A DNA stretch of 64,000 bases, from positions 1-64,000 of the IMG/VR virus record IMGVR_UViG_3300020601_000007. One strand, given 5' to 3'. Below are positions 32,756 to 59,872 of this stretch, piece after piece. The translations under genes and the position numbers were made by a program. Numbering within the stretch: position 1 is the stretch's first letter; each line of letters begins with the position of its first letter. Under the pieces are notes generated by a model. The model was given only the letters and a program-made list of their open reading frames with translations, was not told the DNA's origin and did not search any database. Origin of the DNA: a virus.

Positions 32756-33010
32756 ATGGAAGACGATTCGTTGTTCCGTGTTAAGGGGCACCCACTCCAG
32801 TGTAAGCACCGCCCGTTGAGCGATGCCGAGGCAGCGCTTTTGCTCAGGGAAGAGGGAATTGAATTGAGTCAAATCCCTCCAATTTTCGCAGACGACCCCG
32901 CTTTGGAGTCAATTCGTGTCCCGGTAGGGACTGTAATCGAGGTGACACGGCCTGAAGTCTTCGGATTTCCCGAGCACAGGTATTATCGTCGCATTGTCAT
33001 TGGATGGTGA
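32756..33010 (+). CDS. rpo5: RNA polymerase subunit Rpo5 (RpoH; Rpb5 C-terminal domain only)
   Basis: H-PLQ-KH...LSQIPPIFADDP...GTVIEVTR...YYRRIV; TTTAT box about 27 nt upstream. Confidence 0.9.
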   Translation: MEDDSLFRVKGHPLQCKHRPLSDAEAALLLREEGIELSQIPPIFADDPALESIRVPVGTVIEVTRPEVFGFPEHRYYRRIVIGW

Positions 33011-33011
33011 T

Positions 33012-33455
33012 GTGAAGTTGGAGATATGGACGGACGGGTCGTGCTACAAGAGCGACAGCACGGATGCGATTGGCGATGCAGGCTCCGGTATCGTCTGCAT
33101 TGATGCTGACAATGACAAAATCCTGTTCCTCTTGGGAGAATACATCGGAGTGGAGTCGAACAACTACGCAGAATACCGAGCAATCGAACTTGGCCTTGAA
33201 GAGGTGAACCGCCGATATGAGGTGGACGAGTCCTTTGAAATTGAAGTCGTTTCCGACTCAAAATTGGCAGTCAATACCCTCTCTGGAAATTGGAAGACCG
33301 ATAAGCCACACTTGAGAGAAATCATGGCCCGCATTCAAGAAATTGAAGCAGACATGGGAGTCATTCTTCAATATTCGTGGGTCAAAGCCCACATCGGGAT
33401 TCACTACAACGAACTGGCCGACTATCTGGCATACAACGCTGCGAGGGGAGATTGA
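33012..33455 (+). CDS. rnhA: ribonuclease HI
   Basis: WTDGS, NNYAEY, SDSKL, WVKAHIG...NELADYLA. Confidence 0.92.
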   Translation: MKLEIWTDGSCYKSDSTDAIGDAGSGIVCIDADNDKILFLLGEYIGVESNNYAEYRAIELGLEEVNRRYEVDESFEIEVVSDSKLAVNTLSGNWKTDKPHLREIMARIQEIEADMGVILQYSWVKAHIGIHYNELADYLAYNAARGD

Positions 33456-36400
33456 TGGTTATCATGGAGCCGGAAGAGGACTCGCTGCGAGTCAGCAAAT
33501 TCTTCTGGTTCCTTCCGTATGCAGAAATCAAGGATACCGTGGAGCGAGGCCGTGGTCAACGGGTTTTTTCTTTCGACCAACGCTTTGTGCCCAGTGACAA
33601 ATTTTCAGCAGCAAAGTGGTTTTACACAGACGAAGCCGCTGGCCTGAGGGCTCAATCTGACCACATGGTCATGGTGTCTGTTCAAAACAAGACCTTCGAG
33701 CCAACTGTCAACACGCCTGTGAAGCCGGATGACTATTTGGACGCTGACATTTTCCACACAGGAGAAGAAACCGAATACCCCGGATACATCATCGAAGCAT
33801 TTGAGGCTGAACTCCGCTTCTTCGTCGTCGACAACTTCTCCATGTTCTCGAAGGTTCATGAGTGGCATTCCCTTGACATGGGCTTCCTGAGCCCTGAAGA
33901 GGTTCTGGCGATGTCCAAGGTCAAAGTCACAGACCCTGAGATTTACAACGAGGATGCCGAGCGCTCACCACGAAGGAACGGTCCAGAGGACATTCGGATG
34001 GGAACCTTCGAGAAGGACACCGCCTGCGGAACCTGCCAAAAAACATGGAAGAACAATTTCCTTCAGTCGTGCCCCGGTCACTTTGGACATATCTCACTGG
34101 AGGTCCCGATTCCCAACTGGATGTTCATTGGCGGTGACAAGGAGCCGCTATCGGCGTCCCCGCTGTTGTATGCCCTCAACAGCACTTGTATGCATTGTAG
34201 TGGTCTCCTGATTGCCAAGAAGGAGAATTTGGAACTGCTGGAGGAAAAGGTCACAGCCGTGCGAGAAAGCAACCTGCTGAACACCGCAGGATACGACATC
34301 ATCCGAAAAACGGTGAAAATGCTCATCAATGTGGAGCACAGTGCGCGCTGGAGCGAGGCTGGGCTCAAAAAGAAGGATGTCCCTAAGAACATCACATGCC
34401 CGCACTGTGAGCAAGTCTCTCCTCAACTCACGTTCCATTTGTCGTATTCTGCTGGGCAACAGTTCGTATTTGCGCCGAAGGAAGGTGCTTATGACCCTGA
34501 GAAAGACGAAATGGTGTATTATCCGTATAAGCAGGTCCACGATTGGCTGCAAGACATCAGCGAAAAAGACGCCTCAATGCTCGGCTTTTCTTCTGGCTCT
34601 CGTCCTGCTGACATGTTTTTCACAAACCTACCTGTTATCCCAGTGGTAGCACGACCACCTGCGTCAACGCCCAGTGGGGGGCTCGTCCCCAATGACCTCA
34701 GCGACCTTTATTCCAACGTGGTCAAAATCAACAACCGAATCAAGCGGGACCGCGCCGCCGCCTCGCAGGTTGAGCGGTTGAGCAAGAAATTGTTTCAGGC
34801 AGTCAGCCAGTTGTTGACAGGACAGAAGTCCTCCATCGGTTCCGGCGGCATGAGGACAGCCTTGACGAAGGCTGGGCTTGCTCCACAGAACCTTCGTGGT
34901 TTGTTCGACCGAATCACAGGGGTTGGCCGCCAGAAAAACACCATGCGGCGCAACCACCAAGGGAAAGTGAACGAGGGCGTTGCGTATTCGGTCATCACGC
35001 CTGACCCCTCGTTGGAAATCAACGAAGTCGGCGTTCCGTATCCAGTCTGTCTTGAATTGACCATCGAAGAGGAAGTGACTGAAAGCAACATCGAGTTCCT
35101 CCGTCAATGCGTGCTCAACGGCAAGCAAACCGCCATCAGGAAGGGCCAGAAATACAAGGACATCGACCCTTCTCGATACCCCGGAGCACATTACCTTCGA
35201 CCCCCATCGAGCAGTGGCTATGACCTCGGTTTCGAGGACGTGCCAGAGCGATACCGAGCCAGCACACGGCGGGTCGTGAGCGCTGAAGTCCAAATCGGGG
35301 CAAAGGTCAAGCGAAACATCATCGCTGGGGACATCATTCTTTTCACACGCGCACCGGCCCTGCACCGTCAAAACATGATTGCGTTCAAAGTGGTTCCGAG
35401 CAAGAGCCGAAGCCTTTCATTCAATCCGTCCGTGTGCATACCGTTCAACGCAGATTACGACGGAGATGCCATGCGTATGTTCGTTCCACAAACCAAGGAA
35501 GCCATTGAAGAGGCACGCACAACCATGATGCCATCACACCAGATGTTGCACACACGATACGGACGGACGTTCCTCACGTTCGACCAAGACGAAATCAGCG
35601 GTTCGTATTTGCTCACATTCAAAAACAAAGAAGCCGAAGGTGGAATCCATCCAGACAAAAGGAATGGCTGGGGCTTTGACGAGGATGGCTATCCCATCCT
35701 TTCTCGGAATCGCGTCCTCAACCTGCTCTCACGGGCGTTCACACGCACAGACGACGGCCTTGATTACATGACTCAGTTGCCCAACCCGATTTCCAAGGGG
35801 CCTTACAAGGGGTGCTATCGTGGACGAGACATTGTCTCAATGTTTATCCCTGATGGAATCAACGCAGAATACAAGGCCAAGGACGGGGAAACGAACGTTG
35901 TGATTGAAGACGGAATCGTCAAAGAGGGCGTTCTGGATGAGAAGTTCTTTGGAACAAAATCAGGAGTCCTCGCTGCTGCATTCGTTTATCGCTTTGGCTG
36001 GGACGAGGGACATCGACAGTTGGAACGGATGACCAACCTTCTGTCTCGGGTTGTTTTCGCAGCGCACATGGAATACGGTTTCTCTCTGGGCATCACTGAT
36101 ATTTCATTCAAGGGACGGCAGGCTGAGTGGATTGGCGACCCCATCCTCGGAGGACCGGTAGGGAGGTTTTACGACGGAATTGACGAGAAGTTCGAGGAGG
36201 TCAACGAACGGGTCTCTGAAGTTGAGCGCTTGTTCCGTTCTCGCCGTTTGAATGAAATCGAGGGTATCACCGAAGCAGACCTCAAAACCGCTCTCAAGGA
36301 CCCTGTTCTGGCAAAAGAGCAGGTCATTGGACGAATCACCAAGGAATACGAGGACTACGCACAGAAAAGTGTTCTGGATGAGCAGCCAAGCACAAACGCC

Positions 36401-38212
36401 ATGAACATCACAGTGAACTCAGGGGGGCGTGGAAACAAAAGCCAACTTCAGCAGATGACTGCGGTTTATGGTCAACATCAACTGACAGGCGAAGGGCGCC
36501 CTCGCCACGGCATCAACCCGGACAGGACACTCGCCCACTTCAAGGGAGGACAGGTTATTGTCCCAGCAGATGCGGGTGATGAGGACGCCTTCTTTGACAT
36601 GGATGGGAATTTGGTCAAACTTGTCGTCCACCCGATTGAGCCGAATGCAAAGTCTCAGGGGCTTGTCAGCCAGTGTTATGCTCGTGGTCTTGACCCAGCC
36701 GGATATTGGTTCGCTTCGACCGCAGGGCGGCGCAAACTGATGGAGTCTTCGCAGGGTGGAATCCAGAAATCGGGATACATGGAGCACAAAATGAAGCGTG
36801 CCATGGAGAACCTCATGGTCGATGAAAAGCAGCGTGTGATTGACATTCGTTCAGGCAACATCGTTTCTTTTGCTGTGGGCGGCGATGGCCTTCGGCCATA
36901 CCGAGCACGAGGCCCAGATGATGACAAAGGAGAGGGTCTTGACTTCCAACCACTGCTTCTCGACCACCAATGTATTCACGACAGGTCCCTTTATGACCAC
37001 TGCGAAACCTGTGCAAATGGACCTCAGTCCCGGCTGCAATTCGATTTTTTGCCTCAAAACCTTGAGAAACGGATGTTAGAACTGTTTTCCGGCAGGAAAG
37101 TCGACCTCAAGACGGCTGCAAGCCTGAAGAAAGAAGCCAAGCGGTATTATCAAGAGTCCATCGTTCCGACTGGTGAAATGATTGGGTCCACAGCAGCAGC
37201 AAACCTTGGTGAGCCTGCAACACAAGCCGGGTTGCGAGCATTCCACGGTGGTGGAAAGGGAAGCGTCCCAACAGTCGACCGGCTGGTGCAATACCTTGAA
37301 CTCAAGCGAGCAGAACAACAGCAGCCTGTGACCACGGTTTATCTGAAAGACGAATACAACAACGAAGAAAACGCCAAGCGTCTGGCGAATTTCAGCACGG
37401 GCATCAGGCTCAGTGAAATCGTCAAGTCCGTGGAATACGACACGGAAAATTACCGCATCATTGTCAGTTTCAACGAGCAATACAGCGAACTCTTCACCAT
37501 TGATTTCGACTACGTCTACCACACCCTCAACAAGCAAATGAAGAAGTTCGGGAGGGAAATCATTGAGATGACAGCAGGAAACGATGTCATCATTCAATGT
37601 CACGGCGAATACCGAGACCTTTTGCTCGCGAAAGAGTCGCTATCAGCCATTCCAATTTCCGGAATCAGGGACTCAGGATTGGCTTTTGCTGTCCAGAACA
37701 ATGACAACGGACGTTGGGGTGTTGAATTGAAAGGCCCAATCAAGGGAAACGACGAAATCAAAATCCCCACCTTCTGGAAGGACATCGTTGGTGTTCTTGG
37801 GCCGTATTGCGACTTGAGCCTGACTGAGTTCAGTGATTCTTGGATGGTCTACAACATCATGGGACTTGAGGCTTCGCTGATGCATCTGACGCAGATGCTC
37901 TCACGACAAATGAACGGTGCACCCGGTGTGAGCGGCATTGGTCCGCTTGACTATCGCTACATTCGCACGATGACGGACTACATGGGCGTGTTTGGTCGCC
38001 CTGTCGGTCTTGGTGTGGCTGGTCACATGGTGAAATACAACCGTTCGGTTCTTGCTGCGATGGGTGGGGAGAATCCGTGGATGAGCATCATCCCCGGTGC
38101 AGCCGTAGGGAACAGCGACAAATTGCTCGGGCCTGTTGAGGCGGTTTCGTCAGGAAAGACGCTCAATGTTGGGCAGGTGTATCGAGAAAAGACTCAAGCA
38201 GATGATGTTTGA
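33455..38212 (+). CDS. rpo1: DNA-directed RNA polymerase largest subunit, unsplit A'+A'' (Rpo1-like), divergent
   Basis: CGTC...CPGHFGHI zinc site, RAPALHR, catalytic NADYDGD (35447-35467), SGGRG, KSGYMEHKM, GEPATQ...FHGGG; TGATG coupling to rnhA. Confidence 0.93.
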   Translation: MVIMEPEEDSLRVSKFFWFLPYAEIKDTVERGRGQRVFSFDQRFVPSDKFSAAKWFYTDEAAGLRAQSDHMVMVSVQNKTFEPTVNTPVKPDDYLDADIFHTGEETEYPGYIIEAFEAELRFFVVDNFSMFSKVHEWHSLDMGFLSPEEVLAMSKVKVTDPEIYNEDAERSPRRNGPEDIRMGTFEKDTACGTCQKTWKNNFLQSCPGHFGHISLEVPIPNWMFIGGDKEPLSASPLLYALNSTCMHCSGLLIAKKENLELLEEKVTAVRESNLLNTAGYDIIRKTVKMLINVEHSARWSEAGLKKKDVPKNITCPHCEQVSPQLTFHLSYSAGQQFVFAPKEGAYDPEKDEMVYYPYKQVHDWLQDISEKDASMLGFSSGSRPADMFFTNLPVIPVVARPPASTPSGGLVPNDLSDLYSNVVKINNRIKRDRAAASQVERLSKKLFQAVSQLLTGQKSSIGSGGMRTALTKAGLAPQNLRGLFDRITGVGRQKNTMRRNHQGKVNEGVAYSVITPDPSLEINEVGVPYPVCLELTIEEEVTESNIEFLRQCVLNGKQTAIRKGQKYKDIDPSRYPGAHYLRPPSSSGYDLGFEDVPERYRASTRRVVSAEVQIGAKVKRNIIAGDIILFTRAPALHRQNMIAFKVVPSKSRSLSFNPSVCIPFNADYDGDAMRMFVPQTKEAIEEARTTMMPSHQMLHTRYGRTFLTFDQDEISGSYLLTFKNKEAEGGIHPDKRNGWGFDEDGYPILSRNRVLNLLSRAFTRTDDGLDYMTQLPNPISKGPYKGCYRGRDIVSMFIPDGINAEYKAKDGETNVVIEDGIVKEGVLDEKFFGTKSGVLAAAFVYRFGWDEGHRQLERMTNLLSRVVFAAHMEYGFSLGITDISFKGRQAEWIGDPILGGPVGRFYDGIDEKFEEVNERVSEVERLFRSRRLNEIEGITEADLKTALKDPVLAKEQVIGRITKEYEDYAQKSVLDEQPSTNAMNITVNSGGRGNKSQLQQMTAVYGQHQLTGEGRPRHGINPDRTLAHFKGGQVIVPADAGDEDAFFDMDGNLVKLVVHPIEPNAKSQGLVSQCYARGLDPAGYWFASTAGRRKLMESSQGGIQKSGYMEHKMKRAMENLMVDEKQRVIDIRSGNIVSFAVGGDGLRPYRARGPDDDKGEGLDFQPLLLDHQCIHDRSLYDHCETCANGPQSRLQFDFLPQNLEKRMLELFSGRKVDLKTAASLKKEAKRYYQESIVPTGEMIGSTAAANLGEPATQAGLRAFHGGGKGSVPTVDRLVQYLELKRAEQQQPVTTVYLKDEYNNEENAKRLANFSTGIRLSEIVKSVEYDTENYRIIVSFNEQYSELFTIDFDYVYHTLNKQMKKFGREIIEMTAGNDVIIQCHGEYRDLLLAKESLSAIPISGIRDSGLAFAVQNNDNGRWGVELKGPIKGNDEIKIPTFWKDIVGVLGPYCDLSLTEFSDSWMVYNIMGLEASLMHLTQMLSRQMNGAPGVSGIGPLDYRYIRTMTDYMGVFGRPVGLGVAGHMVKYNRSVLAAMGGENPWMSIIPGAAVGNSDKLLGPVEAVSSGKTLNVGQVYREKTQADDV

Positions 38213-40916
38213 ATCCACTATCCAAGGTTCGGATGTCCCACCCCATCGCACGATAAATCGTTGACATGACGTTCTTGACGTGCCGCTGTGCGACTGCTTC
38301 GTAGTCGACGGTGTATTCTGCGATTTCTTCTGCTTCTCGGAAAGCGATGATGCCGTTCGTTGGGATTGGCGTCGGGCCGTCCTTCACAAAAATCCAAGAC
38401 ACAGAGTCGCCCTTCTGGATGTTCTCAGTGCTGTTTGGTGAAAGGTGCTCGTTATACCACAGGCTGATTGTCGAGGACCAATAATTGTCCACGTAGCAAG
38501 CATCCTCGTCCTTTCCTTCGTCTCCTGTTTTGGGGAGGGGGCAGACACCACAATCGCAATTGATTTCCAAGCCACGCCAGTCCAAATGATGTGGGAGGTG
38601 CTTACCGACCTTGACGTTGGCCTTCATCTGTGAGATGTCCTGCTGCCCGCTGACAATGCTCCGCACCAATTTCTTGACATCACGCTGTATCAGTCGCTCG
38701 GACTTCCCGTCAAACAGTTTCTTCAAGGTTTCAATCTGCACATCACGACCCACAGGAGCAGTGTTCGTTTGCTTTGCTTCCATGCCGCTCATTTTGATGC
38801 GGGCCCATGGGTCGGTGTTGATGTCGTAATCCAGCACCTTGAATCCCTTCTTGTCGTCCCACACCTTGCGCCCTGCGTATCGGTTCTTCTTGGCGATGAA
38901 ATACCGGTCCATGATGACCTCAAGGTCAACCACAACAGCGTCGGATTGAAGTTTTTCTTGAATGCTTTCCGTCAAGAGTGTGCAGACGCGCTCAGATTCT
39001 TCCAGAACCTGCTCCTTGGTCCATTCTGATGGCATCGTGACGAAAATCGAATCAGTGTGACCGAACACCACTCGGTGACCCTCCTTCTCAGCGAGGTCTT
39101 TGATGAACAGCAGCGAGTCCCTTCCACCTTTGGTGATGGTTGCAGCAACGTCTCGGTCATACCAACTGAATTTGTCAAAGGCCATGATACCGTAAAAGGA
39201 TGCACGAAGACGCTTGACGTTCAATTGCATGGTGTTCCACTTGAGGGCACCCTTCTTGTCGCCATTGGCTTCTGCCTCCTTGAGAAGCGCTTTGTATTCA
39301 TCACGCTTCTTGTCAAGGTCGAGAACGATGCGTGGAAGCACACCCATAGGGCTGCGACGGAAGCGAACACCGTTGTGTCCAATGATGTCATCCGGCAGGT
39401 GTTCCATCCCGGGACGAACCTTGGTGCTGGAACAGGTGTTTTGCGAAACCATCATTGAGGGGTAAAGGCCAGCGAAGTCTTTGATGACAGTCCAATCGTG
39501 CAGACCGACAGAATCAGTGTAGACATCGTAGTCATCTGGCTCTCGTTCCTGAGGTTCTTTTTCTGGGTTCATCACGATGGCACCTCGCAGTTTCTCTTCC
39601 TCGTCTTCATCATCCTGCTGCTCCTCATTCCACCCCGGTGTTTCGCTCTTCCAGTCGGCGTAGCGCTCGAATTGAGTGCGAGCGAGATAGGTTGCATAGA
39701 AGGTGGATTTGAACTGACAACCAGCAAAGGCCTGCATGGACTTGAAGGAATTGATGACGTTGTATGCGTTGTCAATTTCAACCAGCAATTCGACGTCACG
39801 GATGTTGTATTGAAGGAACTCGTCCCAGTCCTTGTCGTAGTCCTTGGAGAAGAAGTCGGGGCTCGGTTGCTTCCCTCGTCCAAAGAGTGTTTGGGCAACG
39901 GTTTCCAAGCGATTCCCGGGCAGTTCGTTGTTTGTGCTGTCCTTATACAGACGACGGAAGGCCACCATCATGTCCAGCGTGTCGATTCCTCGGATAGGCT
40001 GGTATTGCCACTTGTATTCTCGGCCACCTTTGAAGGACGGTGGGTCGACGATACCGTATGGTGAAAGAACAGCACCACCGAACACCTGTCGGCGGAATAG
40101 ACCGTTCTCGCACTGACCCGCCATGCTGTTCATTGGGTGCGGGATGTCCAGTGATTCCATGCGATGATACAGAACAGGGAAGTCGTATCCAGCACTGTTC
40201 CACCCTGTGAGAACATCGAAGTCCATGGAAAAGACCCAATCAGCAAAGTGCGTGAGCATTTCCCGCTCGGTAGCGAAGCGGTATTCAAAGCCCCATTCAT
40301 GCTTGGTGTTCTGACGCTCCCACTTTGGGTGGCAGGCAAAGGCAGTGTATTGCTTGGTGAAATTGGAATACACCACGATGGAGTTCACCATTTGATTGTC
40401 CTGCCAGATGTTCAGCCGGGTGTTTTCCAACCAGTCCATTTTGTCTGGGTCGTCACCACGGAATTGGAGTGCTTCGATGTCAAAATACCCCACATGGTAG
40501 TCGGAGTCGTGCGATTCAAGGTCGAGTTTCTGGTCAATGACGACAGCGTCCTCCTGTGGGAGGTCAGCCCCATACACAGGCCCGTAATTGTTGAGGAAAT
40601 AGCGCACCTTCGCAGACGTGTAGCATTCGACACGATACAGCGGCTGCTTGTCCTCGGTCTGTCCGTCTTGAACAAAGGAATGAATCTCCTCATTGTTCTT
40701 GAAATATGCAAGCACTTGGTCAGTCGTCTCGAAGTCGATACCGCGCCCGTTGCGAAGCAAACGGAAGGTCTTGGGAGACATGAAGAAGCGAGGGTATTGG
40801 TCATAGAAATCCACCTTTCGGCAACCGTCCTCACGGTATCGCACTGCAACACGATGTCCGTCAGTCGGGCGTCCTTTCCACCCCGGCGATTGTTCACAGA
40901 TGCTGATGTTGGTCAT
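38163..40916 (-). CDS. polB: family B DNA polymerase with 3'-5' exonuclease
   Basis: FDIE, GWNSAGYD, YNIRDV, DFAGLYPS, KRLRASFYG, FGHTDS, KKNRYAG. Confidence 0.93.
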   Translation of the reverse strand: MTNISICEQSPGWKGRPTDGHRVAVRYREDGCRKVDFYDQYPRFFMSPKTFRLLRNGRGIDFETTDQVLAYFKNNEEIHSFVQDGQTEDKQPLYRVECYTSAKVRYFLNNYGPVYGADLPQEDAVVIDQKLDLESHDSDYHVGYFDIEALQFRGDDPDKMDWLENTRLNIWQDNQMVNSIVVYSNFTKQYTAFACHPKWERQNTKHEWGFEYRFATEREMLTHFADWVFSMDFDVLTGWNSAGYDFPVLYHRMESLDIPHPMNSMAGQCENGLFRRQVFGGAVLSPYGIVDPPSFKGGREYKWQYQPIRGIDTLDMMVAFRRLYKDSTNNELPGNRLETVAQTLFGRGKQPSPDFFSKDYDKDWDEFLQYNIRDVELLVEIDNAYNVINSFKSMQAFAGCQFKSTFYATYLARTQFERYADWKSETPGWNEEQQDDEDEEEKLRGAIVMNPEKEPQEREPDDYDVYTDSVGLHDWTVIKDFAGLYPSMMVSQNTCSSTKVRPGMEHLPDDIIGHNGVRFRRSPMGVLPRIVLDLDKKRDEYKALLKEAEANGDKKGALKWNTMQLNVKRLRASFYGIMAFDKFSWYDRDVAATITKGGRDSLLFIKDLAEKEGHRVVFGHTDSIFVTMPSEWTKEQVLEESERVCTLLTESIQEKLQSDAVVVDLEVIMDRYFIAKKNRYAGRKVWDDKKGFKVLDYDINTDPWARIKMSGMEAKQTNTAPVGRDVQIETLKKLFDGKSERLIQRDVKKLVRSIVSGQQDISQMKANVKVGKHLPHHLDWRGLEINCDCGVCPLPKTGDEGKDEDACYVDNYWSSTISLWYNEHLSPNSTENIQKGDSVSWIFVKDGPTPIPTNGIIAFREAEEIAEYTVDYEAVAQRHVKNVMSTIYRAMGWDIRTLDSGFKHHLLESFLDTPAQH

Positions 40917-41116
40917 TTTGAAACCTCCTCGCCACTCGGTAGCGAAGCACCCGTGAATCGCCACTCATGAGCAGTCACCTTGAGGTTTTTGAGGAACAGC
41001 AACTCCAAAGCCTCACCGAGGTGCTTTTTGCAGACGTGAACAGTGGATACCAAATGGGTTTTGCCCTCAGTGACGGCTGGGTCGCCACAAAAATCGCACT
41101 TGGGGAAAAAGGTCAT
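40913..41116 (-). CDS. small zinc-finger protein
   Basis: CDFC...CKKH; overlaps the polB start. Confidence 0.6.
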   Translation of the reverse strand: MTFFPKCDFCGDPAVTEGKTHLVSTVHVCKKHLGEALELLFLKNLKVTAHEWRFTGASLPSGEEVSK

Positions 41117-42832: not shown

Positions 42833-43153
42833 TCAAATCACCTTGCAGCGCAGAGTCTCCTGCCCGCACTTTGGACACTGCGTAGGCGTATGAAGTTCTT
42901 TGGGCTCCCCGAGCCCTGTCATTTGGTTGCGGTAGTCGCAGGGACCGGTGCAGATGAACAGAAATGTCCGTGCCTTTCCGAGGAGCACCTCGCCAAAGCG
43001 CTCGAATTGTGCACACACCTTCAGCATCTCCGAATCGGTGATTTCCAGTTCAGCCACCTTGATTCCCTTTGCTTTCACGATGAAATTCCAGCCGTTTGCC
43101 ACCTGTCCGACATTGAAACTCATTCCGTTCTTCTCAAGAATTTTCTCGCTCAC
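42833..43153 (-). CDS. zinc-ribbon protein
   Basis: CTGPC...CPKCG; GTGA overlap with the recombinase stop. Confidence 0.6.
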   Translation of the reverse strand: MSEKILEKNGMSFNVGQVANGWNFIVKAKGIKVAELEITDSEMLKVCAQFERFGEVLLGKARTFLFICTGPCDYRNQMTGLGEPKELHTPTQCPKCGQETLRCKVI

Positions 43154-44061
43154 AACAATGCCTCCCATTCGTATTCGTGATTTTCTCCATCCTCAGTCTG
43201 ATATTTTCCTTTGTAGAATTCTTCCTTTTGGATGATGCCTCGGATTGTTGGGCCGGTCCAAACCTTCCCCTCCTGACGGGTGGGAACGTTCCTTTCATCC
43301 AGCGCCTTTGCCACCTCAGAATAGGTCATCCCTGAGCGATGGAGAGCGAATATTTCTTTCAAAATGGGAACCTCTGAAGGCTCTGGAACCAGCATTCCCT
43401 TGTCCTCACTTTCCTCCGTCTTAGCGAAGAGCGATGCATAGCCGTATGGTGGACGGCCAGTGTGTTTCCCAGCGTTCTTTTTGCCTCGCAGTCCTGCTTT
43501 CGTGCGTGCCTTGATGAGGTCCACCTCCATGGCCGCAAAGGCTGTCATGATGCGGAAAATAAGCATCCCAACCGGGGTCGTAGTGTCAACTTGAATGTCA
43601 AGAAAAGCGAAGTCTCGGTCAGCCGTTCGCAGCGTATCCGCCCACTCACCAGCGTTCCTGACGTTGCGGTGGAGGCGGTCCATTTTGGCCCCGACAACCA
43701 CATCCCATTCATTCATTTCCTCCATCATCTGCTGATAGGCTGGCCGTGAAACGTTCGTTCCTGAGAAACCCTCATCCCGATACACCTTGACGACCTCCCA
43801 GCCTTGCATGGCGCAATAGGCACGGCACTCTCGCACCTGCTGGTCGATGGAGGTCTCCGATTGAAGGTCGGTTGATACCCGTCCGTAAATGACGGCTCGA
43901 ATCGGTTCCTCAGATGTTTCAGAACCCCCCCTTGTCAGAAGGGGGGCAAATGACAGGATTCCAACAGGGATGGTATAAGCAAGTGAATGAATCAGGTATG
44001 CAATCATCGGTTTGCCCTCATAATCAGGGGGTAAAGCGGTGGAAATAAAGGTTGGTGCCAT
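43150..44061 (-). CDS. serine recombinase (resolvase plus recombinase domain)
   Basis: YGRVSTDLQ catalytic Ser, DEGFSG, RPAYQQM, DRLHR, GRPPYGY; start uncertain. Confidence 0.9.
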   Translation of the reverse strand: MAPTFISTALPPDYEGKPMIAYLIHSLAYTIPVGILSFAPLLTRGGSETSEEPIRAVIYGRVSTDLQSETSIDQQVRECRAYCAMQGWEVVKVYRDEGFSGTNVSRPAYQQMMEEMNEWDVVVGAKMDRLHRNVRNAGEWADTLRTADRDFAFLDIQVDTTTPVGMLIFRIMTAFAAMEVDLIKARTKAGLRGKKNAGKHTGRPPYGYASLFAKTEESEDKGMLVPEPSEVPILKEIFALHRSGMTYSEVAKALDERNVPTRQEGKVWTGPTIRGIIQKEEFYKGKYQTEDGENHEYEWEALL

Positions 44062-46014: not shown

Positions 46015-46256
46015 CCTTCCCGAGGAAGCAACAGCGAGAGTGTGCCAACCTTCACTGCCGACGGCTGATTTCCAACCACTACAAGAATTGCGTGAGGTGC
46101 GGAACATGCGCACGCTTGGAGAGGGAGGCGAATGAATGATTGTCAAGCGCTGGTGCCGCCGTTGCGGTCAACAGAAGCCCCTCAAGGATTTCGATGAGGC
46201 AGGAGACCACCTCCGCCGATATTGCAGCGAGAGATGCGTCTCAGGAATCAAGTGAG

Positions 46257-46330
46257 CGCCCCTGCCCGGATTTGAACCGGGGTTATCGGCTCCGCAAGCC
46301 GATGTGATGTCCAAACTACACTACAAGGGC
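46257..46330 (-). tRNA. tRNA-Arg(GCG)
   Basis: Cloverleaf: acceptor GCCCTTG/CAGGGGC, anticodon arm TCGGC-TTGCGGA-GCCGA, T arm CCCGG-TTCAAAT-CCGGG; no encoded CCA; TTTAT box about 28-32 nt upstream. Confidence 0.92.
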
Positions 46331-54026: not shown

Positions 54027-54767
54027 TTAAGCGTTTTGTCCCATGTGCCCAAAGCGTCCGGCTTGAGGGTTCCCCGGTTGCTGTGGCATCATACCGGGCT
54101 GCATTTGGTTCTGCGCAGGGGGGAGGCCGAGGGTTCCACGGATGAGAGAAGAGCCGAAACCACCCAACGCTGCACCCATCCCCGCCCGTTGTGGCTGCAT
54201 CATCTGTTGCTGTTGCATCATCTGCTGTTGCATCATTTGTTGCTGCATCTGCTGCTGCATCATGTTCTGTTGGTGTCCACCCATCAACTGCATGGCTTGC
54301 ATGTCTGCCTGAGAGACAGCCATCTGCATTTCTTGGGTTGGGACGACCTTTGACACCTGCATGTCGATGTTCTCCTGCGTGATGGAGGAATATTCCGTTG
54401 CTGCTTCAGCGTTCACGGTGAGTGCCCCACCTCGCTCGCTTGATGAGACAATGGCTCCGCTCTTGAAGAGAGAATACATTTCCTTCCGCACAACAAGGGC
54501 GATGAGGTTAGCGAATTCCGTCATGAAATTGGGGTATGAGAGGAAGAAAAGGGCAACTTGATTCGGATGTGCTGCCATCAAGTGGTAAAACAGCGCCACT
54601 TGGTCCTCGTTGTTCATTCCGTTGGTCATGCTGTCGACCTGACTCATCGCAGCCTGTCCGGCCATAGCCGTCAAACCTGATTGATTGGCAGCAGCCGCAA
54701 CTTGTCCGAGGCCATTCGGCATCAGAGATTGTGAGTTATTCGAGTTTCCAAAGAGTCCCATTTTCAT
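54027..54767 (-). CDS. Gln/Met-rich low-complexity protein
   Basis: MMQQQ repeats; AGGAG RBS. Confidence 0.7.
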   Translation of the reverse strand: MKMGLFGNSNNSQSLMPNGLGQVAAAANQSGLTAMAGQAAMSQVDSMTNGMNNEDQVALFYHLMAAHPNQVALFFLSYPNFMTEFANLIALVVRKEMYSLFKSGAIVSSSERGGALTVNAEAATEYSSITQENIDMQVSKVVPTQEMQMAVSQADMQAMQLMGGHQQNMMQQQMQQQMMQQQMMQQQQMMQPQRAGMGAALGGFGSSLIRGTLGLPPAQNQMQPGMMPQQPGNPQAGRFGHMGQNA

Positions 54768-54810
54768 TCGCTCCTACCTAACGCACGTATGTCATGGACT
54801 TGAACATTCC

Positions 54811-55587
54811 TCATTGATATGCCTCCCTCATCGCTGTGTCAAAGGCAGCGTCAAACATCTGCTCTTGGCTTTGTTCTTGCTCCATGTATTCATTGATGGT
54901 TTCCGCATGGCCGTAGGGACGTCCGTCTGTCCCGACGCCATTGATGTAGTCGTAATCGAAAATCAACATCGAAATGCGGTTTCGCCCGACCGAGTCTGGG
55001 ACACGCACGATGGGAATCCCATCCTTCTCGGCTTCAATGAAGGCTTCTCCCCACTTGGAGGCAAGGGGTGTTTGCGGCTTTTCTGCGGGTTTCTTGATGG
55101 GGATGAACGAAACCCCCTTCTTCCTCATCTGACGGAAAAAGCCGCGCTCGTTTTCCCTTTCTTCTTGCTCCATCCACTCACTGAGCAATTTGAACAACTG
55201 AAGTGCTTGTGGGCAATACGTTCCCGACATTGGTCGTCCACGCCCCGGGATGACACCGGTCCATGGTGTGAACTGGATTGTTCGGCCACGGTCGTCGAGA
55301 AGGTATTCTCGCTTAAGGTCCCCGTAGTCTTGATTGCGACAATCCACCCCAGTGACGACGCACTGGTATGGTTTGTTGTGCTTGTAGCCGAAGAACCCAA
55401 TGGTTCGCTTCACTGGCTTCAGCGTCTTGACAGCGCGCTTGATGTTTTTCTTTCGCGCACGCACGGGGTCGGCGTGTCGGCTAAACTCAAAGTCGATGAC
55501 AGGCGTCACCGCATCCCAGTCCATGTTTCGGTTCTGTGGCAAGGTGCCAAACAGTTCTTTCATTCGTTCCTCTTGGTAGTTGTTCAT
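54811..55587 (-). CDS. hypothetical protein
   Basis: 258 aa; ATGA-coupled to the GTPase. Confidence 0.7.
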   Translation of the reverse strand: MNNYQEERMKELFGTLPQNRNMDWDAVTPVIDFEFSRHADPVRARKKNIKRAVKTLKPVKRTIGFFGYKHNKPYQCVVTGVDCRNQDYGDLKREYLLDDRGRTIQFTPWTGVIPGRGRPMSGTYCPQALQLFKLLSEWMEQEERENERGFFRQMRKKGVSFIPIKKPAEKPQTPLASKWGEAFIEAEKDGIPIVRVPDSVGRNRISMLIFDYDYINGVGTDGRPYGHAETINEYMEQEQSQEQMFDAAFDTAMREAYQ

Positions 55588-56318
55588 AGGTCACTCATCC
55601 CTTTCATTATCGCGTCTTCCACGTTCCAGCCAACCATGGCCGATACAGCGTCCACCCTTGCCGGGATGCGCATTTCTTGGAGTTGGTAAAGGTGTTCCTT
55701 GAAAGGAGCGAAAATCGGGTGTTCTGAAATCAAACCCCGCTCCCATTGAGAATAACCCTGTTCATCCATCCATTCGTCAGCCTTGTTTGCGAGAATAATG
55801 ATGCGTGAAGGACGCCACTTTCGCGCCTTGAAGCGCCGAATGAGACCGATTCCCCGTGGTTTCTTTCCTGTCATGAGGGACTCCACGATGTATCCGAGAG
55901 CCAATTGATTCGATGTGTCGTCTGGATTGAGGAGATGACGGTGGTCAATCATGATGATGAGCGTTTTGATTCGACGCTGATACATGTCTCGCAACCACAT
56001 GGGGAAATATTCCTTGTGCCCACCAATGTCCCTTGAAACGACCGTTTTGTGGAGGCCATCTGAACGGACCCTGTGGATTTGCTTTGTCGGCATTTTGTGG
56101 TTTCTGGTCAGCCAAGAGCGCCGGTGATGCGTCCTCTCATTTTCCCCCAACGGGCGAACCTTTCCTTCTGTCATCAATTGGCGGTCGAGGGTTGACTTCC
56201 CCGTCTCGCTGAAACCATACACACCAATGTTGTGCGTGACGTATGTCCCTGCCTTGTCAAAAAACCGCCAGAAACCGTGAGCAACAACAATTGCGCTGGT
56301 TGAGATGGGGTCGACCAA
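55584..56318 (-). CDS. small Ras/Arf-like P-loop GTPase
   Basis: G1 GFSETGKS, G3 DIGG, G4 NKAD, G5 VSA. Confidence 0.8.
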   Translation of the reverse strand: MVDPISTSAIVVAHGFWRFFDKAGTYVTHNIGVYGFSETGKSTLDRQLMTEGKVRPLGENERTHHRRSWLTRNHKMPTKQIHRVRSDGLHKTVVSRDIGGHKEYFPMWLRDMYQRRIKTLIIMIDHRHLLNPDDTSNQLALGYIVESLMTGKKPRGIGLIRRFKARKWRPSRIIILANKADEWMDEQGYSQWERGLISEHPIFAPFKEHLYQLQEMRIPARVDAVSAMVGWNVEDAIMKGMSDL

Positions 56319-56322
56319 TCAA

Positions 56323-56541
56323 TCACCCCAGAATCCATCCGATGATACCAGCGTGACCCGATGCCTTGTAGATGGCGTAGTCGGTGACCGCTGTCACGAC
56401 CACGCCAGTGCCTGTGAGAATCAGGGACCAGAAGGCGTATTTGATGCGCAGGTATCGCATCGCCCATGTTGTCCCCAAGTGCGTGTTTTTCATCAGGGAT
56501 TCCACTTGAGCGTCCTGACTGTCGTTGAAAATGATGCCCAT
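56323..56541 (-). CDS. small membrane protein
   Basis: One TM helix. Confidence 0.6.
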   Translation of the reverse strand: MGIIFNDSQDAQVESLMKNTHLGTTWAMRYLRIKYAFWSLILTGTGVVVTAVTDYAIYKASGHAGIIGWILG

Positions 56542-56650
56542 TTCACTCTCCCCTGCTGTTCATTCCACAATCATCGGTGTTGATAACACCGTTGGTCTCC
56601 ACGGACCATGCGCTTGCATGTGCCCCCAGAGGCCGTTGGTGCACCGCATC

Positions 56651-57469
56651 TCACTCCGCTGCTTCGGTCATCGGCTCGGTCCCGCTTGGTGTCAAGTCGA
56701 GCGAACTCGTCGCGGATGATGGAGCGGAGGGTTGCGTAGTCGGGATAGGGGAGTTCAGCGTCAGTTTCGGGCCTATCGGGATTCCCATGATTCGGTGCCG
56801 GTCGATTCCGAACTGCTCCGGGGTCAGGGGTGCTTGCGGTGCTGATTGGCTTTGTAATGCCTGAATCTGCGCCATCACCTGCTGAATCCCTTCCAAGTTT
56901 CCCATCAGTTGCTGAGATTCTGTTGGGGTGATGACATTGTCTGCCATCGCTGCTGAGAGGTTTCCCTGATACATGGCCATCTGTTGTCCAAGAACCACCT
57001 CAAGTTGTGCCTTTTCCTGCTCGAACTTCAATTGTGCCATGCGGCGTCGGTTGGAGTTCCGCATTCGCTTGAGTTGTCGGCGGTGCTGGGAGGAATCCTC
57101 AAACATCGCTCGGTAGATGAAATAGAACGCTGCTTGGACTGAAAACCCAGCGAACCCGTAGAAAATAGCGCTCTCGTATGCAGTGTTGAAGTGGCTCCAT
57201 GTCCAGTTCACATACAGCAGAATACAAAACGCAAGCAAAATTGATTGGAACAACATGGTTCCAAGCAATCGCAACTCGCTCTCTCGCAACTGGTCCCGGT
57301 AGTCCTGCTCTTCGTCACTGACTTCACCCAAAAGGGTGTTCAGGAGCGGGTTGTTCCCAATGATGTCAGGACTGACAACCAATTCGTGCCACCTCCAAAA
57401 GTCCAAGCATTTCAATCCGGTCTGCTGGTTCATGCGTGAAGAGTTCAACCCCTTCGGGGCCCTCCACAA
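56651..57469 (-). CDS. two-TM protein with cytoplasmic coiled coil
   Basis: Two TM helices then a Q/R-rich helix; start uncertain. Confidence 0.65.
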   Translation of the reverse strand: MWRAPKGLNSSRMNQQTGLKCLDFWRWHELVVSPDIIGNNPLLNTLLGEVSDEEQDYRDQLRESELRLLGTMLFQSILLAFCILLYVNWTWSHFNTAYESAIFYGFAGFSVQAAFYFIYRAMFEDSSQHRRQLKRMRNSNRRRMAQLKFEQEKAQLEVVLGQQMAMYQGNLSAAMADNVITPTESQQLMGNLEGIQQVMAQIQALQSQSAPQAPLTPEQFGIDRHRIMGIPIGPKLTLNSPIPTTQPSAPSSATSSLDLTPSGTEPMTEAAE

Positions 57470-57819: not shown

Positions 57820-59358
57820 TCACTCTCCGAATTCGTCCGGTTCACGGGCGATGATGATGTTGTCAATACGCAAGAGCATGGACGCCGTGGACGTAGCAGA
57901 CTCAAGAGCGCGTAGAACGACCTTCATCGGCTCCACGACCTTTTCTGCTGCCATGTCGACGACCTCCCCAGTGTAGACGTTGAGGCCTGCGGTCTTGTTG
58001 CCCTCTGCGTGTGCCTTGCGAAGTTCTCGAAGGGTGGCGATAGGCTGCATCTGCCCGCTGTTCTCGGCAAGGGTCAGGGGGATGATTTCCAGTGCATCTG
58101 CGAATGCTTCGACTGCGAGGGACTCAAGTCCACCGACGCTCGTAGCGAATTCACGCAGGCGAATAGCCAACTCAACTTGAGATGCTCCTCCGCCCGCCAG
58201 AACCTTGCCCTCTTTGCGAGCAACGTGAACGACACCGATTGCATCATCCATGGCACGAGCGATTTCTTGGGATGCCTGCTGGGTAGGGGCTTGGACCACG
58301 ATGGAAACAGCGTTCTTGTTTGGTGTTCCTCGTAGCAAAAAGAAACCGCGCTGTCCGTTGGTGGACTCGACCTCTTCAATGGCCTCGCATGTTCCGAGGT
58401 CGTCAGACTCAAGGTCTTCGAGTTCTGCCACGATGAGAGCGTTGGTCGCATCAGAGATGGCCTCAAGGTTGGAGGCGGAACAGCGGCGACAGGCGATGAT
58501 GCCGTTGCGAGCGAAAATTTCAGCAAGGGTCGGGTGAATGTCCTTCATTGTCAGAATAACGTTCGTTCCAAGGTTGGCGATGTGTTCAGCCATGTTGGCG
58601 ATGAGAGTGCGCTGGCGCTGACGGAAGGCTTCGGCTTCTTCTGCACTGTTGAATTGGAGGTTGGTCCCCTTCGCCATGGCAGGTAGGTCAAGAGCACCTT
58701 CAATGAGAGCGATGCGCGCATTGTCAAGGCTGGAAGGCATGGCGCTGTGCATTTTCATTTGACCGACGAGAATGCCGTCAGGAGCATAGGACTCCGAAAC
58801 GGGAGAACCGTAGCGAGAAAGGACATTGATGGAACCCGGTGCAGCCTGCTCGGTTGCCTTCACGCACAGTTCAGCCAGATGTTCTCGTTCCACTTCTGCG
58901 GTTTTCCCTGTCATGGCGGTCATAGCGATGTCCAAGAAATATTCGTCAGCAGGGATGGTCAGGTCCTCGATGATTTCTTGGCACTTAGCAAGGGCGATTT
59001 GGTATCCATTGACGATGGTTGTTGGGTGGACTCGCTTTGCGAGAAGGTCTTCCGCTTGCTTCAGCAGTTCTCCGGTCTTGACAATGGCTGATGTGGTTCC
59101 GTCGTAGCACTCTTCTTCCTGCGTGCGTGCGACTTCCACCATCATTTTTGCAGTGGCGTGCGTGAAGTTCGTTTCTTTCAGGATGGTTGCACCATCATTG
59201 GTGATGACGGTTCGGCCAGTGGCATCGACCAACTGCTTGTCCATCCCCTTTGGTCCAAGTGTTGAGCGAACGAGTTCAGCGACAAATTTGCCGATGCTGA
59301 TGTTCACTTCTTGGGCGGTTTGCTGCTTTTGCTGCTTCGCGTCGGTGGGTTGACTCAT
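57820..59358 (-). CDS. ths: group II chaperonin (thermosome subunit)
   Basis: STLGPKGMDK, TNDGATIL, YDGTTS, GGGASQ, LAENSG, V(V)EP, LLRIDNII. Confidence 0.93.
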   Translation of the reverse strand: MSQPTDAKQQKQQTAQEVNISIGKFVAELVRSTLGPKGMDKQLVDATGRTVITNDGATILKETNFTHATAKMMVEVARTQEEECYDGTTSAIVKTGELLKQAEDLLAKRVHPTTIVNGYQIALAKCQEIIEDLTIPADEYFLDIAMTAMTGKTAEVEREHLAELCVKATEQAAPGSINVLSRYGSPVSESYAPDGILVGQMKMHSAMPSSLDNARIALIEGALDLPAMAKGTNLQFNSAEEAEAFRQRQRTLIANMAEHIANLGTNVILTMKDIHPTLAEIFARNGIIACRRCSASNLEAISDATNALIVAELEDLESDDLGTCEAIEEVESTNGQRGFFLLRGTPNKNAVSIVVQAPTQQASQEIARAMDDAIGVVHVARKEGKVLAGGGASQVELAIRLREFATSVGGLESLAVEAFADALEIIPLTLAENSGQMQPIATLRELRKAHAEGNKTAGLNVYTGEVVDMAAEKVVEPMKVVLRALESATSTASMLLRIDNIIIAREPDEFGE

Positions 59359-59404
59359 GTTTCTCAGAAGGGCCCGTTTGACAAGTGGGCTTAAAGGAAG
59401 CGGC

Positions 59405-59872
59405 TCAAACCGCAATCCAATGAAGGGTCTGACTGCCACTGGCTGCACACAAGAAAATGGATGAACCACGTGTGATTTCAAGGGTCAGCGAACCACCTGC
59501 CGCAATTGGGAAGCCGACGGTTGCTGAAGTCGCTGAATTTCCTACCCGAATGACTTGCCCGTTTCCAGAATCTGCGCTGAGCGTGATGCTACGTTGCGCG
59601 ACAATCGGGATGATTTGATTGTTGGTCCCGCTTGCATAGGCGTCGGAATAATAGTCGTCAAGAGAACGTGCGGTGTTCGTGATGGTCATCGACACGAAGC
59701 CGTATTCAGTCCCTCCTGCACTGCGCAGTGATGGGAACTTCTCAACGCCACTATCTACGGTCTTCAATTTGGCGTAAGCGGAATCAGAATCAACCACGCC
59801 TTCGAGGGGGTAATTGTCAGCCCCACCCGAACTGGGTCCTTTGCGCTTGACGCTTATGGGTTCTCCTGCCAT
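59405..59872 (-). CDS. beta-rich putative virion/spike-base-like protein
   Basis: NGQVIRVG...GFPIAAGGSLTLEI pattern; inference only. Confidence 0.45.
   Translation of the reverse strand: MAGEPISVKRKGPSSGGADNYPLEGVVDSDSAYAKLKTVDSGVEKFPSLRSAGGTEYGFVSMTITNTARSLDDYYSDAYASGTNNQIIPIVAQRSITLSADSGNGQVIRVGNSATSATVGFPIAAGGSLTLEITRGSSIFLCAASGSQTLHWIAV

Follow-up and report, generated by a model that had tools for sequence, protein, structure and literature searches.

Why would a virus-like element carry a gene for the largest subunit of a multisubunit RNA polymerase (RNAP) and no recognisable gene for the second-largest? The question is raised by a 64-kb stretch of DNA, referred to here as the window, which forms the first part of the 110,123-bp IMG/VR virus record IMGVR_UViG_3300020601_000007 (G000 in what follows). 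Within it lies a conserved rpo5–rnhA–rpo1 operon, and the co-occurrence of four marker genes assigns the element that carries it to 'magrovirus group D', a large double-stranded DNA virus-like element tied to marine Thermoplasmatota (Poseidoniales). The answer that we develop here, and hold with a confidence somewhat short of even, is that a widespread marine archaeal virus family swaps the RNAP largest subunit and Rpo5 of its host for its own, which would yield a virus-specific chimeric polymerase. The three genes of the operon are:

32756..33010, plus strand: Rpo5/RpoH-like small RNAP subunit, 84 amino acids (aa), Pfam Rpb5_C
33012..33455, plus strand: RNase HI, 147 aa from the GTG at 33012 (open reading frame (ORF) 32994-33455), Pfam RNase_H
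33455..38212, plus strand: Rpo1, unsplit RNAP largest subunit (A' + A''), 1585 aa (ORF 33377-38212), Rpb1 domains 1-5

The likely GTG start of the RNase H gene at 33012 lies 1 nucleotide (nt) on from the rpo5 stop codon (33008-33010), and the ATG of rpo1 at 33455 overlaps the RNase H stop codon by 1 nt (TGATG), giving the product of 1585 aa. Rpo5 matches Pfam Rpb5_C (PF01191) with 46.3 bits (cut-off 23.5, E 3.7e-12) and the NCBIfam RpoH model with 41 bits, under its equivalog cut-off of 83, and consists of the C-terminal 'assembly' domain only, like archaeal RpoH. The RNase HI (Pfam RNase_H, 49.1 bits, E 8.8e-13) keeps all of its acidic D-E-D-D residues, within the motifs TDGS, NNYAEY, SDS and NELAD. 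An initial annotation, made from the letters of the window, had placed Rpo5, RNase HI and an Rpo1 of about 1585 aa in one run, which both the Pfam matches and the DNA bear out.

How far does this arrangement extend beyond the one record? The protein database holds more than 120 clusters (at 90% identity) of unsplit homologues of 1520-1730 aa, many of them on marine contigs of 100-140 kb and some in bins labelled 'Candidatus Poseidoniales archaeon', 'Euryarchaeota archaeon' or even 'Flavobacteriales'. IMG/VR contains three other records of the family, G001, G002 and G003, whose Rpo1 proteins are 51, 33 and 29% identical to that of G000, and 74 loci were recovered by searching metagenome contigs specifically for the family; no family member was found among the GenBank phage records. 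The topology of the G000 record is linear and its completeness 79% by CheckV. G003 (140,336 bp, terminal repeats of ~55 bases, 100% CheckV completeness) is syntenic with it nearly throughout, the part lacking in G000 corresponding to ~19 kb of G003.

All four genomes share the order rpo5, RNase H, rpo1, as does every one of the 47-48 metagenome loci with enough upstream flank: Rpb5_C scores above its Pfam cut-off in G000-G003 and Rpo5 is present in 47 loci, while RNase HI lies between rpo5 and rpo1 in the four genomes and 48 loci. A gene for a family B DNA polymerase (PolB) comes after rpo1 in 66 of the 74 loci, and also in G001. In G000 the PolB gene is convergent with rpo1, and the 3' ends of the two overlap by 50 nt on opposite strands (38163-38212); similar overlaps of 38-50 nt occur in G001 and in the closer metagenome loci, and not in the G002 and G003 clades. 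The operons of G002 and G003 hold an additional gene of 236-281 aa between RNase H and rpo1, the G003 copy of which has a four-Cys cluster, and gaps of 700-850 nt suggest the same gene in several metagenome loci. It matches no Pfam family and has no homologue in the window; its positions are:

L105:345-1055 in G002, minus strand: extra operon gene
L103:181-1026 in G003, minus strand: extra operon gene

Is the Rpo1 of this family a complete largest subunit? Its residues are counted here from the GTG at 33377, not from the ATG at 33455, and invariance was judged over 20 diverse family members with a mutual identity of 30-70%. The features that bear on the answer are:

33455..33859, plus strand: family-specific N-terminal domain, ~135 aa, ahead of the A' homology
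35447..35467, plus strand: catalytic metal-binding motif NADYDGD, residues 691-697
36713..36826, plus strand: bridge helix region with a one-residue insertion (AGRRKLMESSQGGIQKSGY), by alignment to archaeal A'
36971..37012, plus strand: Cys/His cluster C-x-H-x7-C-x2-C at the A'/A'' junction
37208..37258, plus strand: trigger loop (GEPATQAGLRAFHGGGK), which aligns to archaeal A'' GEPGTQMTLRTFH

The five Rpb1 domains are present in order and all above their cut-offs (PF04997, PF00623, PF04983, PF05000 and PF04998), and the best solved relatives of the protein are archaeal Rpo1N (E 1e-83) and Rpo1C (E 6e-18). Because archaeal A' aligns from residues 162-165 to ~1177 and archaeal A'' from ~1223 to 1601, Rpo1 is the head-to-tail equivalent of both; the NCBIfam models of A' (NF006336, 422.5 bits, cut-off 819) and A'' (TIGR02389, 99.8 bits, cut-off 420.65) are matched below equivalog level. 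In the metal-binding motif N691, A692, D693, D695, G696 and D697 are invariant, and Rpo1 holds the sole DxDGD motif conserved across the four genomes in ORFs of at least 300 aa. The tyrosine of NADYDGD, given in the initial annotation as a departure from the usual NADFDGD, stands for this Rpo1 but not as a fixed trait of the family, since the 51%-identical G001 has NADFDGD. The bridge helix reads SSQGGIQKSGY, with one residue inserted, against the usual TAVRTSQSGY, and keeps G1117, R1119, G1127 and G1133 invariant. The trigger loop sequence is TQAGLRAFHGGG, in which E1279, P1280, Q1283, A1284, L1286, R1287, F1289, H1290, G1293 and K1294 are invariant and the flanking residues family-specific. 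Both clamp zinc sites are invariant too, and in switch 2 GKVNEGVAYSVI replaces the near-universal GKRVxFSARTVI.

The A'/A'' junction is ~45 residues long and contains HQCIH...HCETC at 1197-1212, with C1199, H1201, C1209 and C1212 invariant; archaeal A' sequences are empty in the columns of this cluster. The motifs that had been read from the translation, namely NADYDGD, the bridge helix GRRKLMESSQGGIQKSGY, ATQAGLRAFH and HQCIH...HCETC, are all found in it, the Cys/His-rich linker said to fuse A' and A'' falls exactly at the junction, and the N-terminal extension, put at roughly 130 aa, comes to ~135 aa when measured to the start of the A' homology. Rpo1 is thus a complete, unsplit largest-subunit homologue, intact in its metal motif, zinc sites, bridge helix and trigger loop, and a very divergent one with two family-specific additions, the N-terminal domain and the Cys/His knuckle at the junction.

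Structure prediction, which the initial annotation had proposed as a check, gives an AlphaFold model of residues 27-1226 with a mean predicted local distance difference test (pLDDT) of 79.7; among known structures it most resembles archaeal Rpo1N chains, and Pol II and Pol III come next. Folded alone, the N-terminal domain is predicted to be a compact alpha/beta unit (pLDDT 85.9, predicted template modelling score 0.76), with W44 and G136 invariant and F42, P72, A78, A87 and R91 nearly invariant. By sequence it is confined to the family, and a Foldseek search with it returned nothing at E up to 0.001. A wide structural search (VIA-align) gave weak matches, the best with Z 4.9 and a root-mean-square deviation of 4.1 over 89 aligned residues, and most of the top 50 (Z 2-4.9) have ADP-ribosyltransferase (ART) or NADase-toxin folds; no glutamate, and so no catalytic glutamate or ART triad, was found among the family-invariant columns of the domain. 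The likeness to an ADP-ribosyltransferase fold may serve as a lead only.

A complex model of Rpo1 residues 1090-1611 with Rpo5 scored 0.79, the best of three controls 0.00; the mark used for this score is reached by 58 of 80 solved complexes and by 2 of 110 mismatched pairs. The model runs concur on at least 97% of contacts, and the pLDDT of the partner is at least 84. The model supports a predicted binding of Rpo5 to Rpo1; solved Rpb5–Rpb1 complexes exist, and the pass may reflect memory of them or likeness to them. With the gene order described above, Rpo5 appears as a co-inherited binding partner of Rpo1.

Does Rpo1 then belong to a known cellular lineage? Two trees of the A' region (~850 columns, rooted on bacterial beta') were made, one of 61 rows under LG+G4 and one of 33 rows under LG+C20+F+G4; the named archaeal rows were DPANN, Desulfurococcus, Pyrobaculum and Methanomicrobiales, without Thermoplasmatota or eukaryotes. 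In both trees the family forms one clade (Shimodaira–Hasegawa-like approximate likelihood-ratio test support 100) with a stem 0.86 or 1.16 substitutions per site long; a second clade (support 91 and 93), which excludes it, groups the sampled archaeal A' with the giant-virus-type Rpb1 of IMG/VR. These were quick tree searches and the long stem may be attracted to the outgroup; a short branch inside a sampled cellular lineage is excluded, and the trees do not establish an origin. The protein is no more than 30% identical to any cellular A' found. The phylogeny called for in the initial annotation therefore agrees with its proposal of a divergent, distinct Rpo1 lineage, which takes the form of a separate, long-stemmed clade outside the sampled archaeal A', and the combination that it had named as speaking for a cell, ribosomal operons together with a short branch within a cellular lineage, is not what was found: the record has no ribosomal operon and the stem is long.

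Comparison with the close relative L193 over 1520 codons of rpo1 gives 99.5 synonymous and 33.5 non-synonymous differences, that is, a synonymous rate (dS) of 0.103, a non-synonymous rate (dN) of 0.0096 and a dN/dS of 0.09, the corresponding ratio for PolB being 0.03. Rpo1 is under purifying selection. The stretch is contained in ~20 salt-marsh DNA runs from 2018, probably of one campaign and partly of the source sample, and four metatranscriptome libraries, also from salt marsh, yielded contigs at least 99% identical to it that cover rpo5, RNase H, rpo1, PolB and neighbouring genes. These RNA libraries were available as assembled contigs, which are uninformative on strand, transcript ends, expression level and uncovered bins; they are compatible with expression, and DNA carry-over could also account for them.

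What kind of element carries the operon? Magrovirus group D was defined by Philosof et al. (2017) by the presence of a DNA polymerase, a thermosome, a resolvase and RNA polymerase A (PMC5434244), and all four markers (DNAP B, thermosome, resolvase and RNAP A) co-occur in G000. Besides Rpo1 these are:

38163..40964, minus strand: family B DNA polymerase (PolB), Pfam DNA_pol_B and exonuclease domains
43150..44061, minus strand: serine recombinase ('resolvase'), group D context marker, Pfam Resolvase (E 5e-38) and Recombinase domain
57820..59481, minus strand: thermosome (group II chaperonin), group D context marker, Pfam Cpn60_TCP1 (E 1.7e-140)

The description of the element as virus-like finds support in its place in IMG/VR, a HerA/FtsK-type ATPase of packaging type, the lack of ribosomal RNA (rRNA) genes and the single tRNA gene, and its archaeal affinities in the best matches of Rpo1, to archaeal Rpo1N and Rpo1C, together with the TFB gene of a relative, to which we return below.

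The decisive observation is what the genomes lack. The Pfam families Rpb2_3, Rpb2_6 and Rpb2_7 have no match at E up to 1 in the four genomes, nor do RNA_pol_L (Rpo3/11), Rpb6 and TBP, whereas the control genomes were all matched. The most conserved second-largest-subunit signature, GxKxxxxHGxKG, occurs in none of the six frames of the four genomes, nor does it occur in the 74 loci. TFIIS zinc-ribbon matches in G002 and G003 fell below cut-off. The searches include G003, a complete genome of 140,336 bp. The missing second-largest subunit gene, noted at first for the window, is thus missing from the whole 110-kb record and from three relatives, and the proposed search of the rest of the contig for Rpo2 and TBP, run on the whole record, gave no match. 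The rpo1 gene is one ORF, not split, and no Rpb2 domain occurs anywhere in the record, so that there is no adjacency to rpoB. These absences, together with Rpb5_C in all four genomes, leave Rpo1 and Rpo5 as the only polymerase parts encoded (with TFB in one subclade), and an enzyme of which only these two are supplied cannot be autonomous; in none of the four genomes are both catalytic subunits present, as they would be for an autonomous RNAP of the Nucleocytoviricota type.

The active centre of a multisubunit RNAP requires two double-psi beta-barrels, one from each large subunit. Given that even the complete relative has no gene for the second-largest subunit, the viral Rpo1 and Rpo5 would use the Rpo2 of the host. 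In the mechanism that we propose they would take the places of host Rpo1 and Rpo5, joining the Rpo2 and the small subunits of the host in a chimeric polymerase, a composition to which we give about an even chance. To initiate, this enzyme would use the TBP of the host together with a TFB, either that of the host or, in one subclade, that of the virus. The altered DNA-contacting elements (switch 2 and bridge helix) and the extra domains may bias transcription through promoter choice, or protect viral transcription by making it resistant to shut-off. With RNase HI in the operon and a DNA polymerase alongside, transcription might in addition be coupled to R-loop or primer processing in replication, a tie that the adjacency of RNase HI and PolB suggests.

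Which host would supply the remaining subunits? A TFB gene lies beyond PolB in nine metagenome loci, which form one subclade together with G002:

L107:871-1791 in G002, plus strand: TFB, zinc ribbon and two cyclin repeats, adjoining PolB (a gene of the relative; the window has no TFB gene)

The TFB of this subclade is 50-56% identical to cellular TFBs, the top named ones being from Thermoplasmatota, Thermoplasmata and Thermoplasmatales, and magroviruses have been associated with Marine Group II (PMC5434244). Taken together, the TFB of the relative, the labels of metagenome-assembled genomes (MAGs) and the published association point to Poseidoniales-like hosts and to TBP/TFB-dependent initiation, indirectly for this genome.

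Several points weigh against the swap of subunits proposed here. Assembly with host subunits is itself the inferred step, and with an identity to cellular A' of 30% at most and near-universal residues replaced, the fit of the viral Rpo1 to host Rpo2 comes into question. Many large ORFs have no detectable homologues, and a partner without sequence likeness could be among them. The host is assigned from the TFB of a relative, from MAG labels and from the literature rather than from this genome; the coverage in the RNA libraries is low, and even over neighbouring genes, as DNA carry-over would also give; and the operon of G002 and G003 holds an extra gene without known function.

The alternative that fares best, though we consider it unlikely, is that the element encodes an autonomous polymerase: a second-largest subunit would then lie among the large unassigned ORFs, either too diverged to be recognised or not homologous at all. 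The beta-like subunits of jumbo-phage and crAss-like phage RNAPs, which are barely recognisable, would be a parallel. Candidates exist in the right-arm ORFs of 1103, 894, 829, 697, 923 and 933 aa, for which no Pfam family offers an explanation and several of which are kept across the four genomes, and in the extra gene of unassigned family inside the rpo operon of G002 and G003. The failure of the Rpb2 families and of the GxKxxxxHGxKG signature to find anything in the four genomes speaks against it, as does a search of four large ORFs against the PDB, where no RNAP chain was matched at E up to 1. For the 1103-aa ORF the Atlas suggests a ligase/primase-polymerase, not an RNAP, and does so weakly (0.86); a LigD-like identity for this ORF was rejected, being under the level that counts. 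Moreover, Rpo1 is easily recognised, and a partner that escapes detection altogether would make an odd asymmetry.

Somewhat less probable again is that the element is not a virus, and is instead plasmid-like or extrachromosomal in some other way, or else a piece of an uncharacterised cell, with Rpo1 as a cellular paralogue. Philosof et al. left the nature of group D undecided between virus, provirus, plasmid and cell, because a closed genome and a morphogenetic block were then lacking (PMC5434244), and Xu et al. (2023) again found structural genes to be absent, reported that the group is enriched in the cellular size fraction, and considered that it might be plasmid-like (PMC10160649). In line with this, Pfam and PHROG identified no capsid, portal or terminase protein among the ~30 right-arm and central proteins scanned in our record, and IMG/VR gave only three other records of the family. 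On the other side stand the small size of the complete relative, only 140 kb with terminal repeats; the absence of rRNA genes, of all but one tRNA gene, and of Rpo2, Rpo6, Rpo3/11 and TBP; and the sole packaging-type match among the scanned proteins:

71417-72133: HerA/FtsK-type ATPase, 238 aa, matching a PHROG of packaging ATPases (E 1.6e-17)

The small complete relative, the lack of rRNA and the missing subunits exclude a cellular fragment, which leaves an element without a capsid as the form in which this alternative survives.

A role for the polymerase in replication is improbable as a separate explanation. Here the Rpo1-containing enzyme would make primer or R-loop RNA at an origin, RNase HI would process it and PolB extend it; transcript-primed replication is familiar from ColE1 plasmids and mitochondrial DNA. 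Such a role fits two observations, namely that all 66 loci with enough flank have rpo1 linked to RNase HI and PolB, and that in the clade of G000 rpo1 and PolB overlap at their 3' ends by ~50 nt; but the element also has an archaeo-eukaryotic primase-like gene (1075-2205), and one subclade adds TFB, a promoter-specific initiation factor. As the second catalytic subunit would still be needed, this is a variant of the chimeric model, not a true alternative to it. Least probable of all is a decoy or host shut-off function, in which Rpo1 and Rpo5 would sequester host Rpo2 and assembly subunits and the remaining polymerase would serve viral genes: the encoded subunit set is incomplete, and archaeal viruses do target host RNAP with inhibitors such as ATV RIP/ORF145 (PMC5123050), but a pure decoy has no need of the catalytic aspartates, the trigger-loop Q/L/R/F/H and the bridge-helix glycines that are invariant deep into the family, nor does a dN/dS of 0.09 suit it, and 1585 aa would make a costly inhibitor.

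The remaining features of the record can be described more briefly. A scan for Rfam families and tRNAs found one tRNA-Arg, and no rRNA or other Rfam family; the complete relative G003 likewise has one tRNA-Arg, with anticodon CCG (L088:10366-10440, plus strand). The tRNA gene and the primase-like gene of G000 are:

46256-46330 of the window, minus strand: tRNA-Arg, anticodon GCG, the sole tRNA of the genome
1075-2205, left arm: archaeo-eukaryotic primase-like gene

An AAA+ ATPase gene is also found in the left arm, and a PD-(D/E)XK nuclease is among the products of the record. Most of the other proteins belong to no family, including those of very large ORFs in the right arm, where a block of co-directional giant ORFs (73303-104325, minus strand; 2955, 1103, 894, 829, 697, 923 and 933 aa) is almost free of recognised families, a YbjQ-like domain and a zinc ribbon, both in the 829-aa protein, being the only ones. 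A run of four or five genes at 54027-57469 of the window (minus strand) is kept in all four genomes at 40-83% identity, and one of them shows a weak likeness to P-loop GTPases (GTP_EFTU, E 0.0095). A protein of 204 aa (67068-67682 of G000, minus strand) is 99, 86 and 86% identical in G001, G002 and G003, as compared with 51, 33 and 29% for Rpo1; it has no Pfam or PHROG family, its Atlas clusters are uncharacterised and labelled mostly viral, and its extreme conservation is unexplained.

The minus strand of the left arm has 38 copies of the motif CAWTCGTG between 620 and 29668, most of them where an ORF ends, against an expectation of ~7 for the whole window. Only the left arm of G000 is enriched in it; G001-G003, all of which have the RNAP module, are not. 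The initial annotation had tentatively linked the polymerase to the unusual signals of the left arm; a link between the polymerase and CAWTCGTG as a feature of the family was rejected, as the motif is enriched in this genome only.

How does the system compare with those already known? The nearest is magrovirus group D itself, with the same four markers, no head–tail module recognised among the proteins scanned here, and a marine or brackish setting. The element type and the bare presence of 'RNA polymerase A' have been published, the latter in one sentence (Philosof et al. 2017, PMC5434244), and the group D papers (PMC5434244, PMC10160649) give the polymerase gene no more than this one sentence and report no closed genome; a literature search found no paper that analyses the gene. 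What goes beyond those papers is the operon, with its unsplit rpo1 and the extra domains that this encodes, a complete genome without Rpo2, the packaging-type ATPase and the TFB subclade; we regard as new the conservation of the module, the absence of Rpo2, Rpo3/11, Rpo6 and TBP that extends to a complete relative, and the TFB subclade. An abundant marine family (more than 120 clusters and 74 loci) carries a catalytic subunit without its partner, which bears on the nature of group D, undecided since 2017.

With cellular archaeal Rpo1 and Rpo5 the proteins share domain order, fold, zinc sites, catalytic motif, bridge helix and trigger loop; in both, rpo5 lies upstream of rpo1 and Rpo5 is of the archaeal short form. 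The viral gene differs in being unsplit, in its identity of 30% at most, in the extra N-terminal domain and the junction Cys/His knuckle, and in its altered switch 2 and bridge helix. The cellular operon has the order rpoH-rpoB-rpoA1-rpoA2, and RNase HI sits where rpoB lies in it, which is consistent with descent from an operon of the rpoH-rpoB-rpoA type.

The Nucleocytoviricota (poxviruses, African swine fever virus and giant viruses) likewise have a virus-borne, unsplit Rpb1-type subunit and an Rpb5 homologue. They encode both catalytic and several small RNAP subunits and transcribe autonomously, whereas here there are only Rpo1 and Rpo5, and the clade is separate in the trees from the giant-virus sequences of IMG/VR. 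The family brings a deep unsplit lineage into the discussion of the relationships among archaeal, eukaryotic and giant-virus polymerases, and the long stem and unsplit gene may mark an independent, old branch of the archaeal/eukaryotic RNAP tree.

Viruses that take over a host RNAP offer the last comparison. T4 redirects the host enzyme by sigma replacement and ADP-ribosylation. The outcome proposed here is the same as in such phages and in archaeal viruses such as ATV, with its RIP/ORF145 (PMC5123050), and in all of them there is no complete viral enzyme; archaeal viruses in general are said in reviews to encode no RNA polymerase and to be wholly dependent on the host enzyme (PMC5569661). The literature searched contained no description of a virus replacing the catalytic largest subunit. 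Entry of the viral subunit into the host enzyme, should it occur, would be a new mode of transcription capture by a virus, and a natural experiment on which core parts of an RNAP can be exchanged: the known takeovers add factors to the host polymerase or modify its subunits, whereas the family described here would swap the catalytic largest subunit itself.

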